Below the pieces are notes generated by a model that had not been told where the DNA came from, did not search any database, and saw only the letters and a program-made list of their open reading frames with translations. From Ylistrum balloti (taxonomy: Eukaryota), in the NCBI RefSeq assembly GCF_031769215.1, contig NW_026782006.1, positions 972,070 through 1,036,069 on the forward strand: a DNA stretch of 64,000 bases, read 5' to 3'. Made by a program: the position numbers and the translations under genes. Of the stretch, positions 17,545-61,900 are shown one piece after another (positions within the stretch are counted from its first letter, which is position 1; every line of letters starts with the position of its first letter).

Positions 17545-17736
17545 AAATATTGGTGGTAGCAAACTGGTCATGGTGTGTGATATACTCTATGGCTTGTGGT
17601 TTTCTATGGTACGCCACCGATCTATCAGGGGAAACAACTATGAAATTAACAAGGAAGGACAAGTCACCAAATGTTTGCCACTGGCCATATCCAGGGAGGT
17701 GTTGACATGTCTCCTGTCCCTAGTGAAGTGCTTTGG
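17545..17736 (+). CDS. Gene A exon. Peptide RNIGGSKLVMVCDILYGLWFSMVRHRSIRGNNYEINKEGQVTKCLPLAISREVLTCLLSLVKCF
   Basis: Acceptor tactttcacag|A. Donor TTTGG|gtaagt. Phase 2 in, phase 2 out. Confidence 0.7.
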
Positions 17737-18238
17737 GTAAGTGTAGATATATAATGTAAGTAATTATAAAAGAAAAACAAAAATGTTAGTGTATTCTTGC
17801 CTTATACTGTTTTGCAGTTAATTCAGAGTATAAGAAATTGTTCTATTATGGCTCTAAAACATAAAAAAATGTCAGAAAAAAAAGACTTACAAATTCCCCT
17901 GTTAGAAAGTCTCTTTTATTGTATTGAATCATGACCAATTTTATAAGAGATTTCATAAACATAAACTTTATTTATTTTACAATAATTACAAATCAAGTTA
18001 TTTCAAATTATACTTATCACTCTTGTTGGCCTGGATGTAAGCACATGATAGGTCATATTGTGGGAGGAAGCTGGATTACCCTGGGAAAACCCACATGGTC
18101 GGACAGGTGACCCTTTACCTTTCCATGTCCATTCCGGGAATGGAACCCCCGGATGGCAAGGTGAAAGGCAAGTGCATTACCACTGTGCCACCAAACCACA
18201 GATTTCATAGTCTGACATAAAACATTGACTTTTTCTAG

Positions 18239-19029
18239 GGAAGAAACAGACGATGAAGTATACCAAAAATGCTTGGAGACCCTTGTGTCAGTGCTGAATC
18301 ACCTGAAGGAAACAGTGGTGCACCTACAAGACAAGGGACATGTTAGAGTTACACCTCTCACTACACACGATGTCTGTCACATCCTAGTCAACTCGGCAAG
18401 AGTCATCAACAACAAAGACATTGAAACAACCTGTACACATGCCTTTAAACTCTTGAATGTAAAGAACAGAAGCATGGGGACAGCAAGACAAGATGGGAAA
18501 CACAAAAAGGATGCAAAAGTCATTATTGAAAAAGAAGTGACATCAGAAAAGACTGACAGACAATTAGAAGAAAGTGAAACAGATAAAAAGATTAGTTTGT
18601 TAAGTGTAGACTTGTTGTTACACTGGAATCCAGATCTTCTTGATGATCCAGGTAGTGATGTTGTTCAGGTCACATGTACTGTTGCCATGGCAGTGATTTC
18701 CTTCTTTATAACTAGTCTTCCATATATGAGTTATGAGACAATGGATAGCATTGTGACTTGGATACACCTACATTTTTACAAAGGATCTCTGGTCAAACAT
18801 TTAAGGGAAACAGATCAGAAGGAATTGGTGAGATGTCTCCTACAGATTTATAATGCACTGTACAACATCACTGGTGACAAGATTTATATAGACTCTGATT
18901 CTTGTGTTAGACCTGATTTGAATCATACTTTGATAAATTTGAATGAGGTGATGTTCAACATTGCTGGTCATGAGAAGGGAGAGATGTTGGCAGTATGGAG
19001 AGAATTCTTCTGCAAATGGAACTCAACAG
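18239..19029 (+). CDS. Gene A long exon (791 nt). GEETDDEVYQKCLETLVSVLNHLKETVVHLQDKGHVRV...EMLAVWREFFCKWNST
   Basis: Acceptor ctttttctag|G. Donor CAACAG|gtacag at 19030. Phase 2 in, phase 1 out, which matches the terminal exon. The ORF-track read-through to 19178 is intronic. Confidence 0.75.
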
Positions 19030-19309
19030 GTACAGTCATGTTGGCTAATTATTCTTATTATTGGTTCCATGTACAATCCTCCTCTGGTCTCACAGCCATG
19101 AATTTTATCCATTTTCCTCTTCAGTCATATGAAGTATGTTTCTTTAAGCATTATTCATGTTTGTATGTCCCAGTATAATTGTTCTATTTTTAATTTTGTT
19201 CTGTGATTCCAGGTACATTGTTTAAGCCTAGGCTTTTTAATGTTATCAACAGTAAATGTCTGTCTGAAGTTTGAACTGAAGAATTGTTCCATTGGTTTCC
19301 TTTCTGTAG

Positions 19310-34079: not shown

Positions 34080-34700
34080 GAATGATATATCTAGATATAA
34101 TTTTATTAATGAGATCACTTAACAGAATTCTAGAGATCATGTAACAAAATGCAATTTCAGAGATCTTGTCACTAAATATAATTCTAGGGATCATGTCACT
34201 AAATGTAATTCTAGGTATCATGACACTAAATGTTATTCTAGGGATCATGTCACTAAATATAGTTGTAGGGATCATGTCACTAAACATAATTCTAGAGATC
34301 ATGTCACTAAATGTTATTCTACGGATCATGTCACTAAATGTAATTCTAGGTATCATGTCACTAAATGTTATTCAAGGGATCATGTCACTAAATATAATTA
34401 TAGGGATCATGTCACTAAATATGATTGTAGGGATCATGTCACTAAATATAATTCTAGAGATAACGTCACTAAATGTTATTCTACGGATCATGTCACAAAA
34501 TGTGATTCTAGGTATCATGTCACTAAGTGTAGTTCGACAGATGATATCATTTAACATAAATCTAGGGATGATACTGCAAAATGTAATGGTAGGGAGTAGT
34601 ACACTCCAAATAATGCTAAAAGTGTTATGATTAAATATTATTCTATGGATGGTTTCACCAAACATAACTCTAGGAATGATATCACTTCACAAATTACTCT
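34080..34700. repeat. 30-bp minisatellite of about 20 copies, decaying at its 3' end (gatcatgtcactaaatgtaattctaggtat)
   Basis: Direct repeats. Confidence 0.85.
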
Positions 34701-35022
34701 AAGGAATGTGGCAATACATATCATTCTGAGGTGGTATCACTAAGTATTATTCAAGGAATGATATCTTGAAATATAATTCTAGGGATGGAATCATTTGATA
34801 TAATTCTAGAGATAGCCTCACACAATACAACTCAAAAGATGGTATCACTCAATACATTGATGGCTGTTCATTAACCAATATCCACTTAAAGAAGTGTATC
34901 TGAAAGAAACAATTTTCAAAATGAAAATGATTACTTTAATGACAAAGAGTTTGTCAGAAACATCATATCCCCAACACCTAATATGATCCTTGAGACAAAA
35001 TGAGTTGAGAAGCTTACTTATT

Positions 35023-35237
35023 TTAACTGTCGCTATCAGAATTACAAACATCAGTTTCACGCTGACACCTGTCCTTCTTTCTAACCTTGACCACTGGTTC
35101 TGAGTCACCTTCTCTGCTGTGATCTTCAGGTGTGTTGTCTTTTTTCCGCCCTGTAACGTGAAGGGTCCCCCTATCACTGCTATCTCTGCTTAACCGCTTC
35201 CCCTGGTGTTTATCGACCTGGTGAATACGGCTTCTTC
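35023..35237 (-). CDS. Gene B terminal coding exon (minus). RRSRIHQVDKHQGKRLSRDSSDRGTLHVTGRKKDNTPEDHSREGDSEPVVKVRKKDRCQRETDVCNSDSDS, then stop
   Basis: On the minus strand: acceptor tgtttctgttgacag|GAAGAAG. Phase 1 in, which completes the codon CGA with the C carried from the previous exon. TAA stop at plus 35023-35025. Confidence 0.6.
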
Positions 35238-35759
35238 CTGTCAACAGAAACATTGTTGTGTGCTAAGCTTTTTACTATCTTATTTTTAACATCAGATTAT
35301 TATTGTTACCGTGTGGAAAGATCACATGCATGATTGGAAGACAAATATTATTATCAATACAGTGATTCGGTCCATCATGTTACTTTGTAACCTGTTACTA
35401 AGAAAGACATGTGACGTCATTGATAAAGGAACTCATAACTAGACCAAAGACAGTTACTGTTTAAATGTGAAAGTAGTAAAACCACTGGACTCTCCCTCAC
35501 TTTGGTTTCTCACAGCACTCATTAGTATGACATACTTTTCATAAGCCCTGAATCTTCTAGATAAAGAGTAGGTTCTGCCTTTGACTTAAGATATGTGTAT
35601 TACATAATTTCTGGATAGAGCCTACCAGATTAGTATAAGGTAAACTTTTCTGTAGATATAGGTATTTAAATATTGCAATCAAGATATATCCACGGTTCCT
35701 ACTGAAATCTCTATCAGCATCCATAATTGATTAGTCTTCATTCCCGATGTTTGTAAAAC

Positions 35760-38700
35760 AACTCAGACTCATCAGTATGGACAGATGTCTAGATATAAAA
35801 CAACACTGACTTGTCAGTATGGACAGATGTCTAGATATAAAACAACACTGACTTGTCAGTATGGACAGATGTCTAGATATAAAACAACACTGACTTGTCA
35901 GTATGGACAGATGTCTAGATATAAAACAACACTGACTTGTCAGTATGGACAGATGTCTAGATATAAAACAACACTGACTTGTCAGTATGGACAGATGTCT
36001 AGATATAAAACAACACTGACTTGTCGGTATGGACAGATGTCTAGATATAAAACAACACTGACTTGTCGGTATGGACAGATGTCTAGATATAAAACAACAC
36101 TGACTTGTCAGTATGGACAGATGTCTAGATATAAAACAACACAAAACAACACAGACTTGTCAGTATGGACAGATGTCTAGATATAAAACAACACTGACTT
36201 GTCAGTATGGACAGATGTCTAGATATAAAACAACACTGACTTGTCAGTATGGACAGATGTCTAGATATAAAACAACACTGACTTGTCAGTATGGACAGAT
36301 GTCTAGATATAAAACAACACTGACTTGTCAGTATGGACAGATGTCTAGATATAAAACAACACTGACTTGTCAGTATGGACAGATGTCTAGATATAAAACA
36401 ACACTGACTTGTCAGTATGGACAGATGTCTAGATATAAAACAACACTGACTTGTCAGTATGGACAGATGTCTAGATATAAAACAACACTGACTTGTCAGT
36501 ATGGACAGATGTCTAGATATAAAACAACACAGACTTGTCAGTATGGACAGATGTATAGATATAAAACAACACTGACTTGTCAGTATGGACAGATGTCTAG
36601 ATATAAAACAACACGTGTCAGTGTAGACATATGTCTAGATATAAAACAACACTGACTTGTCAGTATGGACAGATATATAGATATCACACTGACTTGTATG
36701 GACAGATGTCTAGATATAAAACAACACTGACTTGTAGATATATAAAACAACACTGACTTGTCAGTATGGACAGATGTCTAGATATAAAACAACACTGACT
36801 TGTCAGTATGGACAGATGTCTAGATATAAAACAACACTGACTTGTCTGTATGGACAGATGTCTAGATATAAAACAACACTGACTTGTCAGTATGGACAGA
36901 TGTCTAGATATAAAACACACTAGATATAAAACAACACTGACTTGTCAGTATGGACAGATGTCTAGATATAAAACAACACTGACTTGTCAGTATGGACAGA
37001 TGTCTAGATATAAAACAACACTGACTTGTCAGTATGGACAGATGTCTAGATATAAAACAACACTGACTTGTCAGTATGGACAGACTAGATATAAAACAAC
37101 ACTGACTTGTCAGTATGGACAGATGTCTAGATATAAAACAACACTGACTTGTCAGTATAGGACATGTATGGACAGATGTCTAGATATAAAACAACACTGA
37201 CTTGTCGGTATGGACAGATGTCTAGATATAAAACAACACTGACTTGTCAGTATGGACAGATGTCTAGATATAAAACAACACTGACTTGTCAGTATGGACA
37301 GATGTCTAGATATAAAACAACACTGACTTGTCAGTATGGACAGATGTCTAGATATAAAACAACACTGACTTGTCAGTATGGACAGATGTCTAGATATAAA
37401 ACAACACTGACTTGTCAGTATGGACAGATGTCTAGATATAAAACAACACTGACCTGTCATTATGGTCAGATGTCTAGATATAAAACAACACTGACTTGTC
37501 AGTATGGACAGATGTCTAGATATAAAAAAAAACACTGACTTGTCAGTATGGACAGATGTTTAGATATAAAACAACACTGACTTGTCAGTATGGACAGATG
37601 TCTTGATATAAAACAACACAGACTTGTCAGTATGGACAGATGTCTAGATATAAAACAACACTGACTTGTCAGTATGGACAGATGTCTAGATATAAAACAA
37701 CACTGACTTGTCAGTATGGACAGATGTCTAGATATAAAACAACACAGTATGGACAAATGTATAGATATAAAACAACACTGACTTGTCAGTATGGACAGAT
37801 GTCTAGATATAAAACAACACTGACTTGTCAGTACGGACAGATGTCTAGATATAAAACAACACTGACTTGTCAGTATGGACAGATATATAGATATAAAACA
37901 ACACTGACTTGTCAGTGTGGACAGATGTCTAGATATAAAACAACACTGACTTGTCAGTATGGACAGATGTCTAGATATAAAACAACACTGACTTGTCAGT
38001 ATGGACAGATGTCTAGATATAAAACAACACTGACTTGTCAGTATGGACAGATGTCTAGATATAAAACAACACAGACTCATCAGTATGGACAGATATATAG
38101 ATATAAAACAACACTGACTTGTCAGTATGGACAGATGTCTAGATATAAAACAACACTGACTTGTCAGTATGGACAGATGTCTAGATATAAAACAACACTG
38201 ACTTGTCAGTATGGACAGATGTCTAGATATAAAACAACACTGACTTGTCAGTATGGACAGATGTCTAGATATAAAACAACACTGACTTGTCAGTATGGAC
38301 AGATGTCTAGATATAAAACAACACTGACTTGTCAGTATGGACAGATGTCTAGATATAAAACAACACTGACTTGTCAGTATGGACAGATGTCTAGATATAA
38401 AACAACACTGACAGTATGGACAGATGTCTAGATATTGACTTGTCAGTATGGACAGATGTCTAGATATAAAACAACACTGACTTGTCGTATGGACAGATGT
38501 CTAGATATAAAACTAGATATAAAACAACACTGACTTGTCAGTATGGACAGATGTCTAGATATAAAACAAAAACACTGACTTGTCAGTATGGACAGTCTAG
38601 ATATAAAAAAACACTGACTTGTCAGTATGGACAGATGTCTAGATATAAAACAACACTGACTTGTCAGTATGGACAGATGTCTAGATATAAAACAACACTG

Positions 38701-41700
38701 ACTTGTCAGTATGGACAGATGTCTAGATATAAAACAACACTGACTTATCAGTATGGACAGATGTCTAGATATAAAACACACTGACTGATCAGTATGGACA
38801 GATATATAGATATAAAACAACACTGACTTGTCAGTATGGACAGATGTCTAGATATAAAACAACACTGACTTGTCAGTATGGACAGATGTCTAGATATAAA
38901 ACAACACTGACTTGTCAGTATGGACAGATGTCTAGATATAAAACAACACTGACTTGTCAGTATGGACAGATATATAGATATAAAACAACACTGACTTGTC
39001 AGTATGGACAGATGTCTAGATATAAAAAAAAACACTGACTGATCAGTATGGACAGATGTCTAGATATAAAACAACACTGACTTGTCAGTATGGACAGATG
39101 TCTAGATATAAAACAACACTGACTTGTCGGTATGGACAGATGTCTAGATATAAAACAACACTGAATTGTCAGTATGGATAGATGTCTAGATATAAAACAA
39201 CACAGACGTGTCAGTATGGACATATGTCTAGATATATGGACATATGTCTAGATATAAAACAACACTGACTTGTCAGTATGGACAGATGTCTAGATATAAA
39301 ACAACACAGACTTGTCAGTATGGACAGATGTCTAGATATAAAACAACACTGACTTGTCAGTATGGACAGATGTCTAGATATAAAACAACACTGACTTGTC
39401 AGTATGGACAGATGTCTAGAACTTGTCAGTATGGACAGATGATATATAGATATAAAACAACACTGACTTGTCAGTATGGACAGATGTCTAGATATAAAAC
39501 AACACAGACTTTTCAGTATGGACAGATGTCTAGATATAAAACAACACTGACTTGTCAGTATGGACAGATGTCTAGATATAAAACAACACTGACTCATCAG
39601 TATGGACAGATGTCTAGATATAAAACAACACAAACTCATCAGTATGGACAGATATATAGATATAAAACAACACTGACTTGTCAGTATGGACAGATGTATA
39701 GATATAAAACAACACTGACTTGTCAGTATGGACAGATGTCTAGATATAAAACAACACTGACTTGTCAGTATGGACAGATGTCTAGATATAAAACAACACT
39801 GACTTGTCAGTATGGACAGATGTCTAGATATAAAACAACACTGACTTGTCAGTATGGACAGATGTCTAGATATAAAACAACACTGACTTGTCAGTATGGA
39901 CAGATGTCTAGATATAAAAAAAAACACTGACTTGTCAGTATGGACAGATGTCTAGATATAAAACAACACTGACTTGTCAGTATGGACAGATATATAGATA
40001 TAAAACAACACTGACTTGTCAGTATGGACAGATATATAGATATAAAACAACACTGACTTGTCAGTATGGACAGATATATAGATATAAAACAACACTGACT
40101 TGTCAGTATGGACAGATGTCTAGATATAAAACAACACTGACTTGTCAGTATATGGACAGATAGATATAAAACAACACTGACTTGTCAGTATGGACAGATG
40201 TCTAGATATAAAACAACACAGACTTGTCAGTATGGACAGATATATAGATATAAAACAACACTGACTTGTCAGTATGGACTGATATATAGATATAAAACAA
40301 CACTGACCTGTCAGTATGGACAGATATATAGATATAAAACAACACTGACTTGTCAGTATGGACAGATATATAGATATAAAACAACACTGACTTGTCAGTA
40401 TGGACAGATATATAGATATAAAACAACACAGACTTGTCAGTATGGACAGATATATAGATATAAAACAACACTGACTTGTCAGTATGGACAGATATATAGA
40501 TATAAAACAACACTGACTTGTCAGTATGGACAGATGTCTAGATATAAAACAACACTGACTTGTCAGTATGGACAGATGTCTAGATATAAAACAACACAGT
40601 ATGGACAGATGTCTAGATATAAAACAACACTGACTTGTCAGTATGGACAGATGTCTAGATATAAAACAACACTGACTTGTCAGTATGGACAGATGTCTAG
40701 ATATAAAACAACACTGACTTGTCAGTATGGACAGATATCTAGATATAAAACTACACTGACTTGTCAGTATGGACAGATGTCTAGATATAAAACAACACTG
40801 ACTTGTCGGTATGGACAGATATATAGATATAAAACAACACTGACTTGTCAGTATGGACAGATGTCTAGATATAAAACAACACTGACTTGTCAGTATGGAC
40901 AGATGTATAGATATAAAACAACACTGACTTGTCAGTATGGACAGATATATAGATATAAAACAACACTGACTTGTCAGTATGGACAGATGTCTAGATATAA
41001 AACAACACTGACTTGTCAGTATGGACAGATATATAGATATAAAACAACACTGACTTGTCAGTATGGACAGATATATAGATATAAAACAACACAGACTTGT
41101 CAGTATGGACAGATATATAGATATAAAACAACACAGACTTGTCAGTATGGACAGATATATAGATATAAAACAACACTGACTTGTCAGTATGGACAGATAT
41201 ATAGATATAAAACAACACTGACTTGTCAGTATGGACAGATGTCTAGATATAAAACAACACTGACTTGTCAGTATGGACAGATTTATAGATATAAAACAAC
41301 ACTGACTTGTCAGTATGGACAGATGTCTAGTCTATTGATATAAAACAACACTGACTTGTCAGTATGGACAGATATATAGATATAAAACAACACTGACTTG
41401 TCAGTATGGACAGATGTCTAGATATAAAACAACACTGACTTGTCAGTATGGACAGATGTCTAGATATAAAACAACACAAACTCATCAGTATGGACAGATG
41501 TCTAGATATAAAACAACACTGACTTGTCGGTATGGACAGATGTCTAGATATAAAACAACACTGACTTGTCAGTATGGACAGATGTCTAGATATAAAACAA
41601 CACTGACTTGTCGGTATGGACAGATATATAGATATATAACAACACAAACTCATCAGTATGGACAAATGTATAGATATAAAACAACACTGACTTGTCGGTA

Positions 41701-41760
41701 TGGACAGATGTCTAGATATAAAACAACACTGACTTGTCAGTATGGACAGATGTCTAGAAT
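35760..41760. repeat. About 6 kb satellite with a 42-bp unit and about 140 copies (ggacagatgtctagatataaaacaacactgacttgtcagtat). It fills the intron between gene B exons
   Basis: Period 42. Two unit variants (gatgtctag and gatatatag) occur in blocks. Confidence 0.95.
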
Positions 41761-41783
41761 CCGACCATTCCTTATGAACTTAC

Positions 41784-42222
41784 GCTTGCTTGTACTGGCC
41801 ATTATTTCTTCCATTGACATTTCCAGTGAACTTGGTTTCCTTGAAAAGACATCTTCTGAAGACCCTGAAGTATTTGATGTTAGTCTAGGTCGTTCAAGAA
41901 TCTCAAATGATTCTTGTCTGGACAAACGTCGAGAGCGTACACTTGCTCCACTGACGTATCCGGACTCCTGGCGTTCATATCTTTCTTTATTTCGGTAAAC
42001 TGGAGTTGGGAAGTGCTGGGTGTCATCAATAGTCTTCCTTACATCTACTTGTAACTCCTTATTCTTTTTGGAATCAGAAGAGTACTGAGAACTGTCCGTC
42101 TCTTTTTCATTTGTCAGATCGTCACTGCTGTAACTCTCCTCTGCACTATCAAGCAAACTATCAGAATCTTCAGAACTCACGCTACAGTTGGATACAATAG
42201 TCGATGGTATACATTCAAATCT
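41784..42222 (-). CDS. Gene B exon (minus). Ser/Asp/Glu-rich: RFECIPSTIVSNCSVSSEDSDSLLDSAEESYSSDDLTNEKETDSSQYSSDSKKNKELQVDVRKTIDDTQHFPTPVYRNKERYERQESGYVSGASVRSRRLSRQESFEILERPRLTSNTSGSSEDVFSRKPSSLEMSMEEIMASTSK
   Basis: On the minus strand: acceptor tctacatttacag|AGATTTG. Donor AGCAAGC|gtaagtt. 146-codon open frame. Phase 0 in, phase 1 out. Confidence 0.65.
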
Positions 42223-42439
42223 CTGTAAATGTAGAACATAAACATGCATTTTCGTAAGATCGTGCCATATGTGAATGAAATATATAAAATTCTAATTAAG
42301 TCTGTGAATTCCTATCATGTAAATGTATTTATTCATTTGTTCTTTATTTTTCTTTCTAATCATTTAACGAGTTTCGTTTCAGTCCCGCAACATGAAAATG
42401 AAAAAAAACATAAGTCAACCTTCCTGATGTGTCTATGAC

Positions 42440-43900
42440 CTACAACTATAGAAAGGTGTCGACTCTCCTGATGTGTTTATGACCTACAACTATAGGATGG
42501 TGTCGACTCTCCTGATGTCTCTGACCTACAACTATAGGATGGTGTCGACTCTCCTGATGTGTCTATGACCTACAAATATATGATGGTGTCGACTCTCCTG
42601 ATGTCTATGACCTACAACTATAGGATGGTGTCGACTCTCTTGATGTGTCTATGACCTACAACTGTATGATGGTGTCGACTCTTCTGATGTGTATGACCTA
42701 CAACTATAGGATGGTGTCGACTCTCTTGATGTGTCTATGACCTACAACTACAGGATGGTGTCGACTCTCCTGATGTCTATGACCTACAACTATAGGATGG
42801 TGTCGACTCTGCTGATGTGTCTATGACCTACAACTATAGGATGGTGTCGACTCTGCTGATGTGTCTATGACCTACAACTATAGGATGGTGTCGACTCTCC
42901 TGATGTCTATGACCTACAACTATAGGATGGTGTAAGCTCTCTTGATGTGTCTATGACCTACAAATATAGGATGGTGTCGACTCTGCTGATGTGTATGACC
43001 TACAACTATAGGATGGTGTAAGCTCTCTTGATGTGTCTATGACCTACAACTATAGGATGGTGTAAGCTCTCTTGATGTGTCTACGACCTACAACTGTATG
43101 ATGGTGTCGACTCTTCTGATGTGTATGACCTACAACTATAGGATGGTGTCATCTCTCCTGATGTGTATATGACCTACAACTTTATGATGGTGTTGACCCT
43201 CCTAAAGTGTCTGACCTACAACTACAGGAAGGTGTCGACTCTCCTGATGTGTCTATGACCTACAACTATAGGATGGTGTCGACTCTCCTGATGTGTCTAT
43301 GGCCTACAACTATAGAAAGGTGTCGACTTTCTTGATGTGTCTATGATCTACAACTGTAGGATGGTGTCGACTCTCCTGATGTCTATGACTTACAACTATA
43401 GGATGGTGTCGACTCTCCTGATGTCTATGACCTACAACTATAGGATGGTGTCGACTCTCCTGATGTCTATGACTTACAACTATAGGATGGTGTCGACTCT
43501 CCTGATGTCTATGACCTACAACTATAGGATGGTGTCGACTCTCCTGATGTCTATGACCTACAACTATAGGATGGTGTCGACTCTCTTGAGGTGTCTATGA
43601 CATACAACTACAGGATGGTGTCGACTCTCTTGATGTCTATGACCTACAACTGTAGGATTGAGTCGACTCTCTTGATGTGTCTATGACATACAACTATAGG
43701 ATGGTGTCGACTCTCCTGATGTGTCTATGACCTACAACTACAGGAAGGTGTCGAACTCTCTTGATGTGTCTATGACCTACAATTACAGGATGGTGTCGAC
43801 TCTCCTGATGTGTCTATGACCTACAACTATAGGATTGAGTCGACTCTCTTGATGTGTCTACGACATACAACTACAGGATGGTGTCGACTATCCAGATGTT
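42440..43900. repeat. 42-45 bp minisatellite of about 33 copies (ctgatgtgtctatgacctacaactataggatggtgtcgactctc). It fills the gene B X1-X2 intron
   Basis: Direct repeats. Confidence 0.9.
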
Positions 43901-43937
43901 CCCGTGACGCCTTGGATGTTATATGTCTTCTTCTTAC

Positions 43938-44116
43938 CGAATACTCCTGTTGTAACCGGGATTTCCTGTTTGCGTCTGTTCTTTTGACAGCTAGTAGGTG
44001 GAATCTCTTGATGTCAGGATATTCATCATGATCTGTGGGCATCCCTCCTTCCATCATCTTTTCCATTGTTTTGTCATAGTAAGTGACAGATTGTTGAAGG
44101 AGGCTATAACCTTCAG
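43938..44116 (-). CDS. Gene B exon (minus). Peptide ..EGYSLLQQSVTYYDKTMEKMMEGGMPTDHDEYPDIKRFHLLAVKRTDANRKSRLQQEYS
   Basis: On the minus strand: acceptor cttaaacag|CTGAAGG (plus 44117-44118). Donor TATTCG|gtaaga (plus 43932-43937). Ends phase 0, matching the next exon. Confidence 0.55.
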
Positions 44117-45974
44117 CTGTTTAAGACACAAATATTTTATAAAAAAGTTAAGACTTTGTGATATATGATCATTGGTCTGTGATCCATCACTAATTTAACA
44201 TTACGTTCACTTTCAGAGATGATGTAGAACAATTCAAACATTTGTTCCATATCATCTTTGATAGTGAACTTTAACTTTGCACAAAGTCACTGATATAGGC
44301 AACCTCTCTTATTGTTTTCATGTATCTGATCACTTCAAAAGAGCATCAATATCAATCTGCATTGTCTACCGCATGTGATCTGGAAGACTTATAAAAGACA
44401 CACAAGTGAATAACACTTTTTAATACAGATTTAGAACGAGATACATTAGAACCAAAGAAACTGCCATGATCTTCACTCATGCATAGAAACCAATATTTTA
44501 CTTTCACAACAGTAATAACTATGGGCGTACATAGATAACAAGAGTCCTAGTGGACTTGATGGTCTTATCAGATAAGCCCCGTCCTCGGGCCACTGTGGGG
44601 TTGGGAATGTATAATTCACATTTTCGCTCATATTAGGCCTGAGAAGGTTTCTGAAAAATTTCACTGAAACTGATCAGAGGTTTTTGAGAAAAATTCAAAA
44701 ATTGTTTACGGACGCACGGTGCACAGCCCACGATGCACGATGCCGGTCGAAAATGAGCCAATCAGGTCACAGCAGTCTCATTAAATATGTGCAGAATTTG
44801 CCGATAATCAATGGATAAAGGTAACAAGCGTAACAACCCAGTTCCATAAAAACAGTCCCTCAAAAGATATCATGCAGAAAGCAGTATCCGGACGGACGGT
44901 CGGATGGACGAAAGGGACCCATTTGAATACCCCCTCCATATTCGTCGGGCGGGGGATAAAAAGTACGATAACTTGAACTACATTCAATTTGACCGATTTT
45001 TGGCTCCGCCCATCAGCCCCTGGGGTCAACCGAGGTCAATATATGCTTCTCATCAAACTGTCAGTTTTTCTTATAATTCTAACCAAATTTGAACTATTTC
45101 TGAAAGAAAATAAAAAAAATGCTCAAAAATAAAATTTTCCTACATAAAATATTGTAAATTCTATCCCCTCCCCAAGTGGAAATTAGAGACCCTAGGATTA
45201 TGAAATTTACTATTTTGGTAACGCACCGTAAGACACGTCCATGCATGAAGAGTATTTGGTTATATTTTTCTCTGGGTATTGAGAAGAAGATTTAAAAGAA
45301 TTCAGTCAAATTGACCCGTTTTTGACCCCGCCAGTCAGCCGGGGTCACTATAAGCATTTTAAATTGCCATCTTACACTTATAATTCCTACTTAGTCTAAA
45401 ATATTTCCAATAGAAAATAAACAAATTCAAAATGTTCAAAAATATAATTTTCCTATATAAAATATATTAAATTTAACCCCTGTTTCAATCATTCCTACCC
45501 ATTTTTTGCCCCGCCCCTCAGGCTCCTTGGGTTTGGGGACCATACCAATTAGAGTTTGGGAAGCCTTTAGCCATGGATGATTTTTGTTAAATTTCATTGA
45601 AATCGGTTCCGGCGTTTTCCAGAAGAAGTCCGAAATATTAAAAGTTTACGACGCACGTCGCCGGGATCGCAATAAGTCACCCTGAGATTTTGTCATATTA
45701 TTGCATGGCGAGCTCTGGCCACCGGACAATAAAAATTTTCCACTTCTGTATAAGGTTTCTATCTTTTTACCATCAGATATTCGACCCCGTTATGTAAGGA
45801 TTTCGGAATTAGAAAATTGATGCCTTAATCCAGTGCTCCCCATTTTGACCAGTATCAGCAACACTCTGAATTTCTCTGGTCAATTCCAGCGAGTTTGAAG
45901 AAGTAGACAACGTGTTAAGCCGACAAAACCAAATGGTCACATAACCTAACTATGGACACGAAACAAACCATTGA

Positions 45975-47606
45975 TTAAGTGTAACATGAATACGAACCTA
46001 TTTTATCGTCACGGATCCTCTGGTCTCCCCAGTTAAACAGGATACGGGCAATAAGGCTATAACTTAATGTCAAATACACATGGGGCTCCTTCAGAATCTT
46101 TTCTCGTACTTCAAGACTTTTTTTTGCATCAGCTTTTGCTTCCTCATACCTTTTTAATTGAAGGTACAAGATTGATCTGTTTCTCAAAGCTTCAGCATGA
46201 TCGTCTGTGTTATCTGTGCCACGCCTTCTTCCCTCTGCTATTGCCCTGTCGAAATGTTCCAGAGTCTCGTTAATGTACTGATCACGTGATGAATCTTTTG
46301 AAGTATTATCCAATATTTCTTTTAACAAACAAACAGCGCGGTTGTTCCTGAACCGATCTACATCTGGATGCTCTTCTTCAGTAAAACGTCTCCATAGAGA
46401 TGCCCTTTCTATTGCCTCTTCATGATACTTTCTGCATTTGTCATTGTCGTAGAGATAGAAATAACAACCAAGGTCATTAAAGACATTGGCAAGAATCATA
46501 TTTAGATTTTCATTCCTCTCCATTACCTGTTGGAGTTCTTTGTCCTCTAAATACTTCTTTGCTCTGTCCAAGCTTTTTAAGATATCATGTCGTCTTTCAA
46601 TTTTTCTGAAGTAAATAGCTTTCCTGTAGTAGTAGTTTCCTAGAGCTACTTTTATGGCGGTGTCGGATCTGCTGTTGGCCTCATCAAGTTTTTCTTCGGT
46701 AACATGTATAATGTCAGATATGCGTGTAGTATCATCCATTTCAGTCAGCAACTGTATCATGTAGCCACGGAAAAAGAACAATTTATCGATTTCGTTATTT
46801 TGCTCCGCTTTGTGTGTTACCCACTCAAGCCATCGCAGCTGTCTGTTTTGTGTAAGGGTACGTCTTCCTATCGCCAATATTCTGTTTGACGCTTGGATGT
46901 TTGACCGGCCAGTGTCATAATCATCTGTAATTTCCTGTATCATATCAAAATAGCTCTGGACATGTACGTTATACTCTCTCATGTAAGATCCAACACTGTA
47001 GTAAGAATTTTCTTGTTCCTTTCCTATAATTCCAATGATATTTTCCATGTACTCCACAAACCTTATTCTGGCGGGCTCCATGACATTTGAAAACTCACTT
47101 TTACGTTGAATTAGAAATTCAAACATTCGAGGATGAAGAGAGTACAGGATGTTTCTGTCACTGTCTCCCAAACCTGGAGGTCTTTCTTGTGTTGTGTTCC
47201 GCTCCAAGTTTCCCTCTGTCTGAACAGTCATATCGTGGATTTCAATGAGATGACGGCTTTTCAAGTGGAATAGATTCATCTTTGTATTAAGAACTGGTGA
47301 ATATGGAGCATTGTCTTCCTTCAGAACGGCATCGGCTGCATCAATGTCAAAGGATGAGGTCTTGAACAAAGTAAGCTGCATCAGAATGTTCTTCATGTTT
47401 TCGTCAAGTCTATCATAACTCTCCTGGAGGCATTTCTCCATTCTGTCCATGTTGATTACTCTATTTTTTCTCAGATGATTAATAATTTCAACTGGTTTCA
47501 CCTGTCTACAGCAGCTTCTCAGAATACTACATATTGTTCGTAAAGCTAGAGGAATGCCATCAGTCAGTGTAACAAGACTGTCGCATTCTGCTTCTGAGAC
47601 TAAGTC
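45975..47606 (-). CDS. Gene C terminal exon (minus), 543 codons plus stop. DLVSEAECDSLVTLTDGIPLAL (a GxP/GLPL-like motif), a winged-helix-like stretch, then a TPR-like helical repeat region (…ALGNYYYRKAIYFRKI…LGCYFYLYDNDKCRKYHEEAIERA…)
   Basis: On the minus strand: acceptor catgtctcttcag|GACTTAGTC (plus 47607-47608). The ORF-track ATG at 47618 has an in-frame TAA two codons upstream, so the region behaves as an internal exon. Long open frame to the stop at plus 45975-45977. Confidence 0.75.
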   Translation of the reverse strand, partial: DLVSEAECDSLVTLTDGIPLALRTICSILRSCCRQVKPVEIINHLRKNRVINMDRMEKCLQESYDRLDENMKNILMQLTLFKTSSFDIDAADAVLKEDNAPYSPVLNTKMNLFHLKSRHLIEIHDMTVQTEGNLERNTTQERPPGLGDSDRNILYSLHPRMFEFLIQRKSEFSNVMEPARIRFVEYMENIIGIIGKEQENSYYSVGSYMREYNVHVQSYFDMIQEITDDYDTGRSNIQASNRILAIGRRTLTQNRQLRWLEWVTHKAEQNNEIDKLFFFRGYMIQLLTEMDDTTRISDIIHVTEEKLDEANSRSDTAIKVALGNYYYRKAIYFRKIERRHDILKSLDRAKKYLEDKELQQVMERNENLNMILANVFNDLGCYFYLYDNDKCRKYHEEAIERASLWRRFTEEEHPDVDRFRNNRAVCLLKEILDNTSKDSSRDQYINETLEHFDRAIAEGRRRGTDNTDDHAEALRNRSILYLQLKRYEEAKADAKKSLEVREKILKEPHVYLTLSYSLIARILFNWGDQRIRDDKIGSYSCYT

Positions 47607-48099: not shown

Positions 48100-48850
48100 G
48101 TTGATGGATGGTCATAGCCAAACTGCTGTCGCACGGTAGTTTGGCAATACCCCGTGTACAATTAACCGTCTATACACTTTTCCATGCTACTGGGTTAGTT
48201 TCCCATCGTCACAGGAGTGGTCTTCCGCGTGTAACGACCGCACGACAAGAGAGGACGATTCGATTGCCGCATTTGCACAACAGATTCAGAACTGCTATAG
48301 AGACTGTGTCGCGTACCTAAGGTACTCATGGCATACTTATTAGTGCTCAAACTTCCAGGAACCGCTTGAGTGCCGATATAATCATTGCGTGCTGACCTTA
48401 TGTCAGGTCACCTCTGACTCCACGGAGGCGGCAAGTGCGTCTTGACTGAATGCGCAGATATGACCCGAATAGGGTTTGGATGCGTCGGTGGAGGCGTGTG
48501 ATGTTCACTGACGAGTCTAGATACTGTCTGTATCGGTCAGACGGAAGAAAAAAAAGCATATCGCAGACGCGTTGAGCGTGTTGCCGACGCATGCGTGGTT
48601 GAACGCGATGTATTCGGTGGGGCTTCTGTAATGGCAAGTGTTGCATATTGCCAGATTCTGACGTACTTTACTCATGGCAACTACGTTCAGCCTCTAGAAT
48701 TGCCCCAAAATAACCCCGACATGTCTCCCATCGAGCATCTGTGGGGTGATCTGGACAGGCGTAGTAGGAAACGTCCAGTTGATCGCAGCATTAACACAAG
48801 AATGGAACAAAATTCCCTTGAGGCGAATTAATGTTCTCATGAATTCAATA
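48100..48850 (+). pseudogene. Tc1-like transposase pseudogene (frameshifted), antisense inside a gene C intron
   Basis: Fragments read GLPRVTTARQERTIRL..NRFRTA; then W..VMFTDESRYCLYRSDGRK..; then GGASVMA...NNPDMSPIEHLWGDLDRR. These are canonical Tc1 motifs, split across three frames. Confidence 0.7.
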
Positions 48851-49313
48851 CATAAGAGACTCCGTGTAGAGAATCGTGTCTCCACACCTGGTACTTAATT
48901 GTCATTTTGTTTTTTGCGGATATCCCACTTTGAGTAACTACTGACGACACGAGCGACGTCACACAGACTTTTCTTCTGCAATATTGTAAATAGTAGACTT
49001 GTCCCTTCATATATTTTAATTGTGCGTTTCTTTTTTGGTTGAGTATATTTTTATGCGATTGTGCTCTACACAGACAGCTACCAAACATCAAATCAAGTTT
49101 ATGAATAAATTTAATACGTTAAAATTGTGTTGAATATTTATTACATTTTCAAGCTTTCTAGACTTTTTCTTCAATTTCTCACAATGTTTTGATAACCATT
49201 TTGGAATATCTAATAACATATTTGATTATATAAAGAAACGAACGTTCAAGCTATAAGGGCAGTGAAATATCTTGCTGATGAAGTCATTCATCGTGCCCAA
49301 ATTGTCTTTATAC

Positions 49314-55972: not shown

Positions 55973-58900
55973 CAGTGGCCCCCTCCAGGGGGACTCAGGA
56001 GGTGGGGTGAGGGCTCCTGGAAAAATTTGTAAACAAAGAAGCCTGTCGGTGCTAACATGGCTTAATTAAATGACCATGAATAACACAATGTTTAATTGTT
56101 GTTAGAAACAAGAAATAAAAGTGGGTGGCTAAAAGGCATCGTCCCATTCAGAATCTTCTTCATCGCTGACAGTGTCCTCTTACCTTTCCTTCATTTCATG
56201 GTCAAGGTTTAGCCGTTGCACAGCCACCCTCACCTGGGACACAGGCTCACCAAGACTGCCAGATACAACAGCTGGGTCAGTTTGTATCCCGGAGTCCTGG
56301 ACCTCGGTCAGAAGTTCCTTATCAATCATGGCATATGAAATATCACGTTTGGGAGGTGGTTTATAACTTTCTATTTATTTGATGTTCTATGTGAAAACTT
56401 GACAATTCGCTTGTCCGTACTGTCGATATTACTTCAGCCATCATATATCTATTCCAGTAACACGCATCCAAAGAACAATTGTTTGTTAGGATCCAGTACG
56501 GATATTAGACCATAACCGTTAATATTACTTACCAGGTTTCATATATGTATATCACTCATACTTATCATTGCAGTCCCATTATCTCTACTTTAATCTACTA
56601 ATCAAACCTCACCTTCCAAGGTTCTGTGATCACATTGGCCTGAATGAATATGACATTTCTCCTTTTTACGTAGTTTACATGTTTATAACATCCTCGGTAA
56701 GTGTAGGACTAGACGCTTTCGTAGAATTCTGATCATTCAGTTTTTATGCAAAGGGGGTTTAATCTGCATTCGGTAAAAATGATATCCGATCTTATTGACA
56801 CATTTTATGGTCTTTACTTGTTCTTTAAACGTTAAGCGATGAAAAAAATTGTTTACAGACCGACGATAGACTACGGACGTAAGGCGACTGTCCAGCATTT
56901 GAACTTGGGCTGAAAAAGATTACATATCAAAGGATGTTCTCAAAAAGATCGCGGTTTTTCTTTTAACACCCTCGACTGTATATGTTAAACGTAGTTACCT
57001 TATATATTTCTGACTACTATTTTTATCATGAATTGTAGGTAACAATATTGTATATATATATACAGTCTACATATCAGGTGATTTCCTAGGTAAATACAGT
57101 CTACATACCAGGTGCTTTCCCAGATAAGTACATTCTACATACCAGTTGATTCCCCAGGTAAGTACCATAATCATACCATTTGATTCCCTAGGTAAGTACC
57201 ATAATCATACCAGGTGATTTCCCAGGTAAGAACAGTCTACATACCAGGTGCTTTCCCAGATAAGTACAGTCTACATACCAGATGATTTCCCAGGTATGTA
57301 CAGCCTACATACCAAATGATTTACCAGGTAAGTACCGTCTACATACACAGGTGATTTTCAGGTAAGTACAGCCTACATAACAGGTGATTTCCCAGGTAAG
57401 TACAGCCTACATACCAAATAATTTCCCAGGTGTTAGTAAATTACAATAATGTCTATATGACATGCCTCGAGAGCGTTGCTCGAAACTATCACTGATACAT
57501 GTTTACCTGCAAATCAACCTCCGACATCAAGGCCTTCCCGTTTTGACTACGGCTATTGGGTCTCCTAGAGAGACTTCTTCAGCAATTATTCAGGCTACAG
57601 CTCCGACAAGCACCTATACATTACAAGCCAATAGATGAAGTTTCAGACTGGGTCCCCTACCTGTTTGTTCTGTCACGAACTATAAAATAGAGAACATTTC
57701 CTTCTATACTGTCCGAAACGGGAACGCAAACATGAAAAACATCTACCACAAATACTTTTAAACACCAGATATATACTATGAGTGTAGCTACTGATCCTGA
57801 AGTCGACAAGATTGTACCTTCCCGATAGTGCAAGAATTGTATAATCCAAGTGAAAACGACACGAGCAAAATCGAAAGAATCAGCCTATTTCTGGAATATT
57901 ACCTTCATCTGCAAAGATCAAGTTTGATGGTCTCCAAATTGAAGCTAACCACTTCAGTGTACTATAACAAATGTCAGTTACTATTATGAGTCCAAGTAGG
58001 GGATATGTTGATTTAATGTAACTTCCTCTTCTAACATACAATTTGTATGACTGCGCATTTAATCTTTCCGTGATGTGCGCAGCGTTGACGTGTGCATCAA
58101 TTAATTTTCATGCGTTAATGTGCATTACCCATTTCTAAACTGGGGTACAAATCCAGTTTTAAGTTTCAGCTAAATTATGACGACCGACACAAAAAATTGA
58201 AAAAATGAGCTGCACTTACATATTTATCTGCTTACATCCCAGTATGTAGGAATAACACTTTAAAAAATTGATAGAACTTCAATATCCAGGGCGTTGGATT
58301 GCAAGGTCAAGACACAAATGAGACAGGATATACAAAAATCCACCAATCATTTGACGAAATCCAAAAAAAAAGACACGCACTTCAACAATAACGGTAACAC
58401 ACAGATGTGTATGTGTATCGTTATATAACAGTGATGTTTATGTATCCAGGGTTTTCTATAAATATTTTAATAATAGGCTGTAAAATGGAGTAGGAGTCTG
58501 GCGAAGCCAGCCGACTGAGCCGTAACGCGGCGAGGCGGGGATGGTTTGAGGAGGGGGCACTGGCCCCCTCCAGGGGGACTCAGGAGGTGGGGTAAGGGCT
58601 CCTGGAAAAAATTGTAAACAAAGAAGCCTGTCGGTGCTAACATGGCTTAATTAAATGACCATGAATAACACAATGTTTAAAAGGCATCGTCCCATTCAGA
58701 ATCTTCTTCATCGCTGACAGTGTCCTCTTACCTTTCCTTCATTTCATGGTCAAGGTTTAGCCGTTGCACAGCCACCCTCACCTGGGACACAGGCTCACCA
58801 AGACCGCCAGATACAACAGCTGGGTCAGTTTGTATCCCAGAGTCCTGGACCTCGGTCAGAAGTGCCTTATCAATCATGGCATATGAAATATCACGTTTGG

Positions 58901-61900
58901 GAGGTGGTTTATAACTTTCTATTTATTTTGATGTTCTATGTGAAAACTTGACAATTCGCTTGTCCGTACTGTCGATATTACTTCAGCCATCATATATCTA
59001 TTCCAGTAACACGCATCCAAAGAACAATTGTTTGTTAGGATCCAGTACGGATATTAGACCATAACCGTTAATATTACTTACCAGGTTTCATATATGTATA
59101 TCACTCATACTTATCATTGCAGTCCCATTATCTCTACTTTAATCTACTAATCAAACCTCACCTTCCAAGGTTCTGTGATCACATTGGCCTGAATGAATAT
59201 GACATTTCTCCTGTTTACGTAGTTTACATGTTTATAATATCCTCGGTAAGTGTAGGACTAGACACTTTCATAGAGTTCTGATCATTTCAGCTTTTATGCA
59301 AAGGGGGTTTAATCTGCATTCGGTAAAAATGATATCCGATCTTATTGACACATTTTATGGTCTTTACTTGTTCTTTAAACGTTAAGCGATGAAAAAATTG
59401 TTTACAGACCGACGATAGACTACGGACGTAAGGCGACTGTCCAGCATTTGAACTTGGGCTGAAAAAGATTACATATCAAAGGGTGTCCTCAAAAAGATCG
59501 CGGTTTTTCTTTTAACACCCTCGACTGTATATGTTAAACGTAGTTACCTTATATATTTCTGACTACTATTTTTATCATGAATTGTAGGTAACAATATTGT
59601 ATATATATATATACAGTCTACATACCAGGTGATTTCCTAGGTAAATACAGTCTACATACCAGGTGCTTTCCCAGATAAGTACATTCTACATACCAGTTGA
59701 TTCCCCAGGTAAGTACCATAATCATACCATTTGATTCCCCAGGTAAGTACCATAATCATACCAGGTGATTTCCCAGGTAAGAACAGTCTACATACCAGGT
59801 GCTTTCCCAGATAAGTACAGTCTACATACCAGATGATTTCCCAGGTATGTACAGCCTACATACCAAATGATTTACCAGGTAAGTACCGTCTACATACACA
59901 GGTGATTTTCCAGGTATGTACCGTCTACATACCAGGTGATTTTCCAGGTAAGTACTTCTTCATACCAGGTGATTTCCCAGGTAAGTACCGTCTACATGCC
60001 AGGTGATTACCCGGAGAAGTACCGTTTACATACCAGATGATTTCCCAGGTAAATATATTCTACATACCACATGATTTCCCAGGTAAATATATTCTACATA
60101 CCAGGTGATTTCTCAGGTATGTACCGTCTACATACCAGTTGATTTCCCAGGTAAGTACCGCCTACATACCAGGTGATTTCCCAGGTAAGTACCGTTTACA
60201 TACCGGTTGATTTCCCAGGAAAGCACCGTTTACGTACCAGTGATTTACCAGGTAAATACAGACTACATACCAGGTGATTTTCAGGTAAGTACAGCCCACA
60301 TACCAGGTGATTTTCAGGTAAGTACAGCCTACATACCAGGTAATTTCCCAGGTGTTAGTAAATTACAATAATGTCTATATGACATGCCTCGAGAGCGTCG
60401 CTCGAAACTATCACTGATACATGTTTACCTGCAAATCAACCTCCGACATCAAGGCCTTCCCGTTTTGACTACGGCTATTGGGTCTCCTAGAGAGACTTCT
60501 TCAGCAATTATTCAGGCTACAGCTCCGACAAGCACCTATACATTACAAGCCAATAGATGAAGTTTCAGACTGGGTCCCCTACCTGTTTGTTCTGTCACGA
60601 ACTATAAAATAGAGAACATTTCCTTCTATACTGTCCGAAACGGGAACGCAAACATGAAAAACATCTACCACAAATACTTTTAAACACCAGATATATACTA
60701 TGAGTGTAGCTACTGATCCTGAAGTCGACAAGATTGTACCTTCCCGATAGTGCAAGAATTGTATAATCCAAGTGAAAACGACACGAGCAAAATCGAAAGA
60801 ATCAGCCTATTTCTGGAATATTACCTTCATCTGCAAAGATCAAGTTTGATGGTCTCCAAATTGAAGCTAACCACTTCAGTGTACTATAACAAATGTCAGT
60901 TACTATTATGAGTCCAAGTAGGGGATATGTTGATTTAATGTAACTTCCTCTTCTAGCATACAATTTGTATGACTGCGCATTTAATCTTTCCGTGATGTGC
61001 GCAGCGTTGACGTGTGCATCAATTAATTTTCATGCGTTAATGTGCATTACCCATTTCTAAACTGGGGTACAAATCCAGTTTTAAGTTTCAGCTAAATTAT
61101 GACGACCGACACAAAAAATTGAAAAAATGAGCTGCACTTACATATTTATCTGCTTACATCCCAGTATGTAGGAATAACACTTTAAAAAATTGATAGAACT
61201 TCAATATCCAGGGCGTTGGATTGCAAGGTCAAGACACAAATGAGACAGGATATACAAAAATCCACCAATCATTTGACGAAATCCAAAAAAAAAGACACGC
61301 ACTTCAACAATAACGGTAACACACAGATGTGTATGTGTATCGTTATATAACAGTGATGTTTATGTATCCAGGGTTTTCTATAAATATTTTAATAATAGGC
61401 TGTAAAATGGAGTAGGAGTCTGGCGAAGCCAGCCGACTGAGCCGTAACGCGGCGAGGCGGGGATGGTTTGAGGAGGGGGCACTGGCCCCCTCCAGGGGAC
61501 TCAGGAGGTGGGGTGAGGGCTCCTGGAAAAAATTGTAAACAAAGAAGCCTGTCGGTGCTAACATGGCTTAATTAAATGACCATGAATAACACAATGTTTA
61601 AAAGGCATCGTCCCATTCAGAATCTTCTTCATCGCTGACAGTGTCCTCTTACCTTTCCTTCATTTCATGGTCAAGGTTTAGCCGTTGCACAGCCACCCTC
61701 ACCTGGGACACAGGCTCACCAAGACCGCCAGATACAACAGCTGGGTCAGTTTGTATCCCAGAGTCCTGGACCTCGGTCAGAAGTGCCTTATCAATCATGG
61801 CATATGAAATATCACGTTTGGGAGGTGGTTTATAACTTTCTATTTATTTTGATGTTCTATGTGAAAATATGACAATTCGCTTGCCCGTACTGTCGATATT

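Follow-up and report, generated by a model that had tools for sequence, protein, structure and literature searches.

The question raised by the stretch of scallop DNA considered here (64,000 nucleotides of Ylistrum balloti contig NW_026782006.1, positions 972,070 to 1,036,069, hereafter the window) is what kind of gene carries three short minus-strand exons separated by introns that consist almost wholly of tandem repeats, and whether these repeats have any part in what the gene does. An earlier note, made from the sequence alone, had placed such exons at 44116–43938, 42222–41784 and 35237–35023 and had read them as part of a Ser/Arg/acidic low-complexity protein. The answer that best accounts for the evidence below is that they form the 3′ third (exons 7–9) of a gene that has nine exons and encodes a STAND NTPase, and that the arrays in the introns grew in place in the Ylistrum lineage; this we hold to be very probable.

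The existence of the gene itself is secure. The three exons are correct as proposed in position, boundary and phase, with canonical AG and GT sites, and the peptide quoted for them is obtained. They belong to a nine-exon minus-strand gene extending from 55671 to 35023, the whole of which is already annotated in RefSeq as LOC132545765 of this animal, the saucer scallop. Indeed, a single GT–AG chain in the window gives, residue for residue, the 1137 residues of XP_060065437.1 (‘uncharacterized protein LOC132545765’), to which the product is 100% identical. In this chain coding exons 1 to 5 lie at 55671–55227, 54737–54626, 54376–54216, 53175–53069 and 49460–49314 on the minus strand; with introns 1–4 they occupy 55671–49314 and cover the N-terminal helical domain and the part of the NB-ARC domain containing the P-loop and Walker B. 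Exon 6 (47606–45998, 1609 nt, residues 325–860) supplies the GIPLAL-bearing end of the NB-ARC domain, together with a linker of helices and the TPR repeats, including the TPR_12 match. Exon 7 (44116–43938, 179 nt, residues 861–920), exon 8 (42222–41784, 439 nt, residues 921–1067) and exon 9 (35237–35023, 215 nt, residues 1068–1137 and the TAA stop at 35025–35023) join into 833 nt, open throughout in one frame and encoding residues 861–1137. Their acceptors read ...ttaaacag|CTGAAG, ...atttacag|AGATTT and ...gttgacag|GAAGAA, respectively, and the donors of exons 7 and 8 read TATTCG|gtaaga and GCAAGC|gtaagt. Splicing is thereby predicted from the RefSeq model, from the canonical sites and from the conservation of both the exon structure and the protein.

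The upstream part of the gene had been sought in a GC-motif region at 45720–44575, which proves to lie inside intron 6 (45997–44117, 1881 nt). No part of database protein P0001 maps to that intron, and the exon preceding exon 7 is instead exon 6, the junction being in phase (G|CT, Ala861). The region, which has short matches to units of ~157 bp repeated within two of the Pecten introns, is a decayed interspersed repeat devoid of exons, a relic that Pecten shares.

Homology gives the same picture of a genuine gene. The 276-aa tail searched alone, much as had been suggested for the joined peptide, returned no match, which reflects a limit of the word index, since the longer query then matched at 100%: the peptide of exons 6–9 is identical to the RefSeq protein over 100% of its length and is 56% identical, over 94–98% of the query, to orthologs in two other scallop genera. 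These are Pecten maximus XP_033740036.1 (LOC117327245) and Mizuhopecten yessoensis XP_021359449.1/OWF47468.1, the latter present in UniProt as A0A210QFG1, ‘NB-ARC domain-containing protein’. The same homolog search missed the protein itself when given an N-terminal query, and its null results have been excluded as evidence. That the coding reading is no product of chance is shown by these matches and by the exact chain; open reading frame length by itself is a weak argument in this window, because the 42-bp unit of one array is divisible by three and array ORFs, made of repeats, reach 386 aa.

The protein encoded by the full chain is predicted to be a STAND-class NTPase, comprising an N-terminal helical domain, an NB-ARC ATPase, a linker with TPR-like repeats and a disordered tail. 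Residues 144–387 score 39.7 bits with the Pfam NB-ARC model (PF00931; cut-off 23.5) and span positions 15–245 of the 248 in the model, and the same annotation is precomputed for database proteins P0001, P0002 and P0010. The sequence contains a Walker A P-loop of the GxxxxGKT/S type (GAGGIGKT, residue 154), a Walker B motif of the hhhhDD/N type (IVMLDNVD, residue 242) and the GxP/GLPLA motif that marks the ARC subdomain (GIPLA, residue 341). The Pecten ortholog keeps all three; in Mizuhopecten the RefSeq model is missing the N-terminal stretch with Walker A but retains the other two. For the N-terminal half, the next-best match is a plant TIR-NB-ARC protein. By analogy with APAF-1 and NLR-type proteins, the NB-ARC domain would undergo nucleotide-dependent oligomerisation held under the control of the repeat region.

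Exon 6 alone passes the Pfam cut-offs for TPR_12 (34.2 against 30.1) and TPR_10 (28.9 against 27.5), and in the full protein the two scores, 28.8 and 26.4, fall just under threshold, such that one repeat pair only is a confident TPR by sequence. A PDB sequence search gave just marginal matches to AAA (Cdc6-type) and kinesin light chain TPR structures. The AlphaFold model has helix pairs in series through residue ~925, with a pLDDT of ~31 beyond; exon 7 provides the last helices of this TPR-like region (block-mean pLDDT ~57–80). At the other end, the N-terminal domain of ~125 residues is modelled as all-helical, with about six helices, at a pLDDT of 55, too low for a fold search to be made with it, and a Pfam search of residues 1–158 for CARD, Death, DED or PYD domains returned only noise at E ≤ 1.

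The description of the product as a Ser/Arg/acidic low-complexity protein therefore has to be confined to its end: the whole is a 1137-aa NB-ARC/TPR protein in which exon 7 is helical, and it is the tail encoded by exons 8 and 9 that is Ser-rich and charged. This tail of ~210 residues (217 as counted) contains 19% Ser, 11% Arg and 19% Asp plus Glu, with an entropy of 3.85 bits against 4.12 for the remaining protein; in other words, it is compositionally biased and yet no true low-complexity sequence. It is predicted, from a three-sequence alignment, to be disordered, and the product of exon 8 has a pLDDT of ~31. Nor is the tail an RS domain, since its 217 residues include no more than two RS and six SR dipeptides. 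It contains an invariant motif of 30 residues and two conserved sites of the basophilic-kinase type (LxRxxS). The motif, RLSRQESFE(I/V)L..RP..TSNTSGSSEDVF, is in exon 8 and has the form SR(R/H)LSRQESFE(I/V)L(E/D)RP..TSNTSGSSEDVF in the orthologs; exon 9, the tail end, holds the second LxRxxS site (LSRDSS) and shows the weakest conservation of any part, with 30–35% identity to the orthologs. The tails of the orthologs run longer at the C-terminus than that of Y. balloti, and in the Mizuhopecten ortholog part of the motif is present a second time, as a degenerate insertion. Pfam matched no family to the tail, and a profile of its alignment, searched exhaustively against 1.84 billion representative proteins, recovered pectinid orthologs only. 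From these features the tail is most likely a phospho-regulated docking or regulatory segment, and its motif is a candidate short linear motif, without relatives outside scallops in the profile search.

The introns between these exons are indeed nearly pure tandem repeat. Intron 7 (43937–42223, 1715 nt, phase 0) is 86% minisatellite, with a 44-bp unit at 43899–42422 in 34.2 copies at 88% matches according to Tandem Repeats Finder, and intron 8 (41783–35238, 6546 nt, phase 1) is 92% minisatellite, with a 42-bp unit at 41758–35754 in 143 copies, as assembled, at 89% matches. The earlier estimate of ~140 copies in a 6.5 kb intron was thus sound, as was the range of 42–45 bp for the units of the other array, in which variants of 42 and 44 nt alternate; that intron is 1.7 kb long, however, 1.5 kb being the length of its array. 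The term satellite is too strong: with units of 42–44 bp, arrays of 1.5 and 6 kb and each unit found solely in its own array within the window, both are minisatellites by definition (head-to-tail units of 10–100 bp in arrays of at least 0.5 kb), a classical satellite being an abundant family whose very long arrays occupy many loci or heterochromatin. On the gene strand the intron 7 array begins 38 nt past the donor and stops 199 nt short of the acceptor, and the intron 8 array begins 25 nt past its donor. When the intron 8 array is parsed into 136 units, 60 are identical and 46 distinct variants are found, one of which clusters toward the donor side. A combination of TACTGAC, a T-rich tract and AG, in that order, recurs with its unit ~100 times; the number of acceptor-like sites by a simple pyrimidine-tract criterion is seven, with nearly zero GTRAG donor cores, and a role of the unit as a source of decoy splice sites was discarded. 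Hairpin folding was likewise discarded as the driver of expansion, the units of the two arrays folding no better than shuffled sequence (z −1.4 to +1.2).

Comparison with the one orthologous locus studied at the genomic level, that of Pecten, indicates where the arrays came from. The Pecten gene has the same nine exons with the same intron phases (1,2,1,0,0,1,0,1), including a 179-nt counterpart of exon 7 in identical phase. DNA conservation between the two loci is confined to exons, and among the matched segments of the gene the highest nucleotide identity (86% over 92 nt) is at 41934–41843, within exon 8. Pecten introns 7 and 8 measure 482 and 978 bp, and Smith–Waterman alignment of both units to these introns and to the whole 17-kb locus gave scores not above those of shuffled sequence. 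Since the Pecten introns are short and bear no trace of either unit, the arrays are lineage-specific: recent and species-specific minisatellite expansions as opposed to a conserved feature. A different minisatellite would have invaded each of introns 7 and 8 and expanded where it stood, through replication slippage or unequal exchange, once the Ylistrum and Pecten lineages had separated, until introns that had measured a few hundred bp reached 1.7 and 6.5 kb; the arrays would be removed by splicing.

Such arrays would be a local sample of a genome with a very high tandem-repeat load. Tandem repeats make up 31% of the window, as 17 arrays of at least 200 bp that occur within introns as well as between genes; the neighbouring gene, URB1/NopRA1, also has arrays in its introns. 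The arrays of the window are mutually unrelated, save for three copies of a 34-bp array within a 2.9-kb macro-repeat. Summed from the Tandem Repeats Finder output, repeat density is ~44% in the introns of the gene and ~38% in the neighbouring intergenic DNA. A related animal, the gliding scallop Amusium pleuronectes, has an assembly of which tandem repeats occupy 21.7%, more than any other class of repeat (PMC10225492). Taken with the absence of the arrays from one ortholog, this regional density suggests that they are probably neutral.

Arrival by insertion has to be weighed against growth in place, in that the arrays could have come with non-autonomous transposons, as tandem repeats internal to elements of the Helentron/HINE type or of a repeat-carrying MITE type, such as bivalves are known to have. 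Satellite-like arrays are dispersed inside Helentron-derived elements in bivalve genomes (PMC7492417), and a relic of such an element, with ~157-bp repeats beside a CGTC-type microsatellite, is present in intron 6 here and in two Pecten introns. The monomers described in oyster, however, are of 140–180 bp and occur mostly in no more than five copies, with a maximum of 29 (PMC7492417), against 42–44 bp and 34 or 143 copies in the present introns. Moreover, no flank or unit is common to other arrays in the window, and with just 25 and 38 nt between exon and array there is no room on the exon side for a transposon flank. An origin by transposition is consequently judged improbable.

That the arrays are functional, either as regulatory or splicing elements or through a length polymorphism that tunes how often the tail exons are included, and with it the balance between tailed and tail-less protein, is very unlikely. 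In favour of such a role, the exons of the regulatory-looking tail are precisely those bordered by the gene's two largest repeat-filled introns, both arrays adjoin a 5′ splice site, and retention of intron 6 would stop the protein eight codons on and give a tail-less form; the sense strand of the 6-kb array is also free of AATAAA and ATTAAA and has only three matches to the GTRAG donor core. Yet the array is one unit repeated, so this absence of motifs is effectively a single observation, and the closeness to the 5′ splice sites (25–38 nt), with n = 2, is treated here as coincidence. The arrays are, moreover, missing from the Pecten ortholog, repeat density in the introns resembles that of the intergenic DNA nearby, the hairpin potential of the units is ordinary, and Rfam found no match across the whole window. 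A bolder form of the idea would make the tail a phosphorylation-controlled switch of an NB-ARC/TPR cell-death or immune sensor, with hypervariable introns 7 and 8 shifting the ratio of tailed to tail-less isoforms between individuals; were it true, repeat instability would be coupled to the regulation of a STAND protein, but we give this little credence.

Two further readings have, taken together, next to no chance of being right. One is that assembly errors created the arrays or set their lengths; against it, the 46 variants among 136 units of the 42-bp array, with clustered subvariants and indels, have the look of a genuinely sequenced, evolving array. The other is that the 42-bp array is coding, as its unit, divisible by three and open in one sense-strand frame, might suggest: sense-strand ORFs reach 238 aa (SRHLSILTSQCCFI repeated) and antisense ORFs 381 aa. 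Read-through of the exon 8 donor, however, enters the TGA frame and stops after 15 codons, indels repeatedly break the open frame, and the ortholog proteins contain no such repeat; the coding reading was rejected.

Growth of the arrays in place thus remains the preferred reading, and the importance of the locus beyond annotation is small. The existing RefSeq model is shown to be well founded, with a unique canonical splice chain and an exon structure and protein conserved in Pecten, and its product can now be placed in the NB-ARC/TPR class, with a sharply conserved tail motif that may be of use in studies of bivalve STAND proteins. The introns offer a clean example of minisatellite growth alone enlarging an intron ~3.6- to 6.7-fold (482 to 1715 bp and 978 to 6546 bp), in a genome whose dominant class of repeat is the tandem one.

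Of the known systems with which the locus may be compared, SR proteins share with the tail an enrichment in Ser and Arg (19% and 11%), but Pfam finds no RRM or other RNA-binding domain in the scallop protein, and acidic residues in the tail are as common as basic ones. An SR splicing factor would combine at least one RRM with an RS domain made of consecutive RS/SR dipeptides; with no RRM and a total of eight such dipeptides over the 217 residues of its tail, the scallop protein is not of this kind. The arrays resemble the euchromatic minisatellite and satellite-like arrays of bivalves, which are likewise AT-rich, tandem and dispersed in gene-rich DNA, including introns. They differ from the HINE arrays of the Pacific oyster in unit length (42–44 rather than 140–180 bp) and copy number (34 and 143 rather than mostly five or fewer), and HINEs are recognised by a left flank with a subTIR, an inverted repeat and a microsatellite and a right flank with a subTIR and a palindrome (PMC7492417), a set of flanks that the intron 7 and 8 arrays do not have within the window. 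The protein itself is closest in layout to the NB-ARC/TPR NLR-like STAND proteins of invertebrates such as Hydra and placozoans and, more distantly, to APAF-1. The layout they share is tripartite, with a helical domain at the N-terminus, then an NB-ARC NTPase bearing the Walker A, Walker B and GxP motifs, then, at the C-terminus, repeats of TPR type where LRRs would otherwise stand, as described for the non-LRR NLRs of early-branching animals (PMC6321704). The scallop protein, whose N-terminal domain (pLDDT 55) gave no Pfam match to Death, CARD or DED, adds to the common plan a Ser-rich tail of ~210 residues, predicted to be disordered and bearing the invariant motif, which the profile search recovered in pectinid orthologs only.

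The three minus-strand exons that the earlier note had proposed for a Ser/Arg/acidic protein are exact in their coordinates (44116-43938, 42222-41784 and 35237-35023). Their splice signals are canonical (acceptor ttaaacag/CTGAAG and donor TATTCG/gtaaga for the first, acceptor atttacag/AGATTT and donor GCAAGC/gtaagt for the second, acceptor gttgacag/GAAGAA and a closing TAA for the third), and on joining they yield the quoted peptide in a single open frame only. The upstream exons had been expected within 44575-45720, a stretch which turns out to lie inside an intron; the true upstream exon is 47606-45998, found within a 547-codon minus-strand ORF (47618-45975) directly upstream, with its acceptor at 47606 and its donor, AAATAG/gttcgt, at 45998. 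The leftover G of this exon and the CT at the start of the next form an Ala codon, and the joined product of 813 residues has 100% identity over 100% of its length to RefSeq XP_060065437.1, a 1137-residue protein of the scallop Ylistrum balloti recorded as 'uncharacterized protein LOC132545765'. Proteins from Pecten maximus and Mizuhopecten yessoensis share 56% identity with the joined product, at a query coverage of 94-98%.

From a search for GT/GC-AG chains around tblastn matches, one sole chain in the window has a translation identical to XP_060065437.1 at every residue. Its nine exons lie on the minus strand, with the first six at 55671-55227, 54737-54626, 54376-54216, 53175-53069, 49460-49314 and 47606-45998, such that the three exons of the note are exons 7-9. 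The gene is already annotated, and its class, that of the NB-ARC/TPR STAND proteins, is already known and widespread among invertebrates (PMC6321704). The original observation is confirmed and its interpretation partly supported. A word-indexed protein search with the C-terminal tail or the N-terminal 420 residues alone did not find the RefSeq protein, despite its 100% identity, and the 813-residue query did; a null result from such a search is not evidence of absence.

The class assignment rests on a Pfam NB-ARC match at residues 144-387 (39.7 bits against a cut-off of 23.5), overlain by weaker matches to AAA_22, NPHP3_N and NACHT, on TPR_12 and TPR_10 matches near residues 771-833, and on the Walker A (GAGGIGKT), Walker B (IVMLDNVD) and GxP (GIPLA) motifs. 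For the N-terminal 420 residues, the next-best match after an Argopecten ortholog fragment is a plant TIR-NB-ARC resistance protein. Helices are predicted for residues 1 to ~125 at a pLDDT of 55, which is too poor for the fold to be named. A model of residues 641-1137, built from three orthologs, consists of helix pairs as far as ~residue 925 (pLDDT mostly 60-85), three of the helices coming from exon 7, beyond which the pLDDT lies near 31 and the only secondary structure is one six-residue helix. From this pattern, exon 7 completes the repeat domain and exons 8-9 encode a tail predicted to be disordered. The Ser/Arg/acidic description holds for exons 8-9 but not for exon 7. Were intron 6 retained, the frame would close 8 codons past the donor (45975-45997, …DDKIGSYSCYT*), leaving a product that keeps the NB-ARC and TPR regions but lacks the final helices and the tail.

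The tail is 19% Ser, 11% Arg and 19% Asp+Glu. An SR protein identity can be dismissed, as there are only 8 RS/SR dipeptides in the tail and Pfam finds no RRM in the protein. Alignment of three species reveals an invariant block, S-R-(R/H)-L-S-R-Q-E-S-F-E-(I/V)-L-(E/D)-R-P-x-(L/M)-T-S-N-T-S-G-S-S-E-D-V-F, within an otherwise loosely conserved tail, together with a second conserved site, (K/R)-L-S-R-x-x-S, encoded by exon 9. The DNA of the block (41843-41934) is 86% identical to that of Pecten, the highest value among the matched segments of the gene. A tail profile searched against 1.84 billion representative proteins matched nothing beyond pectinid orthologs. The tail is thus an extension confined to this lineage, on which purifying selection acts locally. 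Several basophilic kinases prefer the pattern L-x-R-x-x-S, which both LSRxxS sites match, and both may accordingly be phosphorylated. The Mizuhopecten yessoensis ortholog (P0003) has an insertion of ~50 residues in its tail, at residues ~870-930 (…TRPRMPSHSSGSLVSRRKRLSRDVSLEEL…), which resembles the conserved motif repeated in degenerate form.

Tandem Repeats Finder places a 44-bp unit in 34 copies (88% matches) at 42422-43899 in intron 7, and a 42-bp unit in 143 copies (89% matches) at 35754-41758 in intron 8. The array makes up 92% of the 6546 nt of intron 8, in keeping with the 6.5 kb of 42-bp repeat first described, and 86% of intron 7, where the 42-45 bp array was correctly recognised and the length was not, the intron measuring 1715 nt (1.7 kb) rather than 1.5 kb. 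When the 42-bp array is parsed, 109 of the 136 intervals are exactly 42 nt, and there are 60 identical units and 46 distinct variants, with subvariants clustered; the intron 7 array is a mixture of 44- and 42-nt variants. On the gene strand the arrays start 38 nt (intron 7) and 25 nt (intron 8) past the donor.

The Pecten maximus ortholog, its exon chain worked out in the same manner from locus L001, also has nine exons, with identical phases (1,2,1,0,0,1,0,1) and equal lengths of exons 2, 4 and 7 (112, 107 and 179 nt). At the DNA level the two loci align in exons only. Its introns 7 and 8 are 482 and 978 bp, and local alignment of the 42- and 44-bp units (as dimers, on both strands) to these introns and to the whole 17-kb locus does not exceed the level of shuffled sequence; without their arrays, the two introns of Ylistrum would shrink to 237 and 541 nt. 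The arrays therefore arose by insertion or expansion on the Ylistrum side alone. Pointing the same way, the hairpin potential of the units is not unusual (z -1.4 to +1.2), a scan of the whole window gave no match to any RNA family, and the ORFs made by the repeats, considered as coding sequence, were rejected as indel-broken and out of frame with the exons. The arrays are young and probably neutral expansions in a repeat-rich genome.

Across the window, 17 tandem arrays of 200 bp or longer, with unit lengths between 19 and 68 bp, bring the share of tandem repeat to 31% (19,975 of 64,000 bases). In a self-comparison of the window, different arrays lack mutual similarity, the sole exception being three copies of a 34-bp minisatellite (57061-57431, 59612-60353 and 62534-63343). 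These lie one in each copy of a macro-repeat at 56100-64000, whose ~2.92-kb unit runs head to tail ~2.7 times at 94-98% identity and continues past the window end. A convergent plus-strand gene at 1-19200 is a homolog of URB1/NopRA1 (nucleolar pre-ribosomal-associated protein 1; ORF 15774-16085, Pfam PF16201, 59 bits), and its introns contain minisatellites at 4969-5930, 6067-7220, 7429-7678, 12702-13965 and 17264-17467. The 15-kb stretch that separates this convergent gene pair is ~38% array, as against ~44% for the NB-ARC gene introns. Since arrays occur likewise in the neighbouring introns and in intergenic DNA, repeat-filled introns are the norm of this genome region and no special property of the NB-ARC gene. 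The assembly of Amusium pleuronectes, a related gliding scallop, is 21.7% tandem repeat, more than any other repeat class (PMC10225492). On the gene's strand, a further 27-bp minisatellite (34126-34786; 15 copies, with degenerate copies out to ~34786) follows the stop codon at a distance of 240-900 nt and, being bracketed by ATTAAA at 34940 and AATAAA at 34107, may belong to the 3' UTR.

Within intron 4, plus-strand sequence at 48100-48900 holds broken ORFs with a Tc1/mariner-type DDE signature (PIEHLWGDLDRR; Pfam DDE_3 E = 0.006, below threshold), and is probably a decayed transposon. As to the arrays themselves, the satellite-like arrays of oysters are carried in Helentron-derived elements, with 140-180-bp monomers, usually in no more than 5 copies, and characteristic flanks (PMC7492417), from which the arrays of introns 7 and 8 differ in unit size, in copy number and in lying too close to the donor for a flank to fit there. 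In intron 6, the GC-motif region (44575-45720) is another matter: it matches ~157-bp tandem units from introns 5 and 8 of the Pecten ortholog (8165-8817 and 13102-13449 of L001). It is a decayed interspersed element that Pecten maximus also has, and looks like what is left of a Helentron-derived element. In Pecten, one of the arrays comes directly after a (CGTC)8 microsatellite, which is the architecture described for the Helentron-derived HINE elements of oysters.
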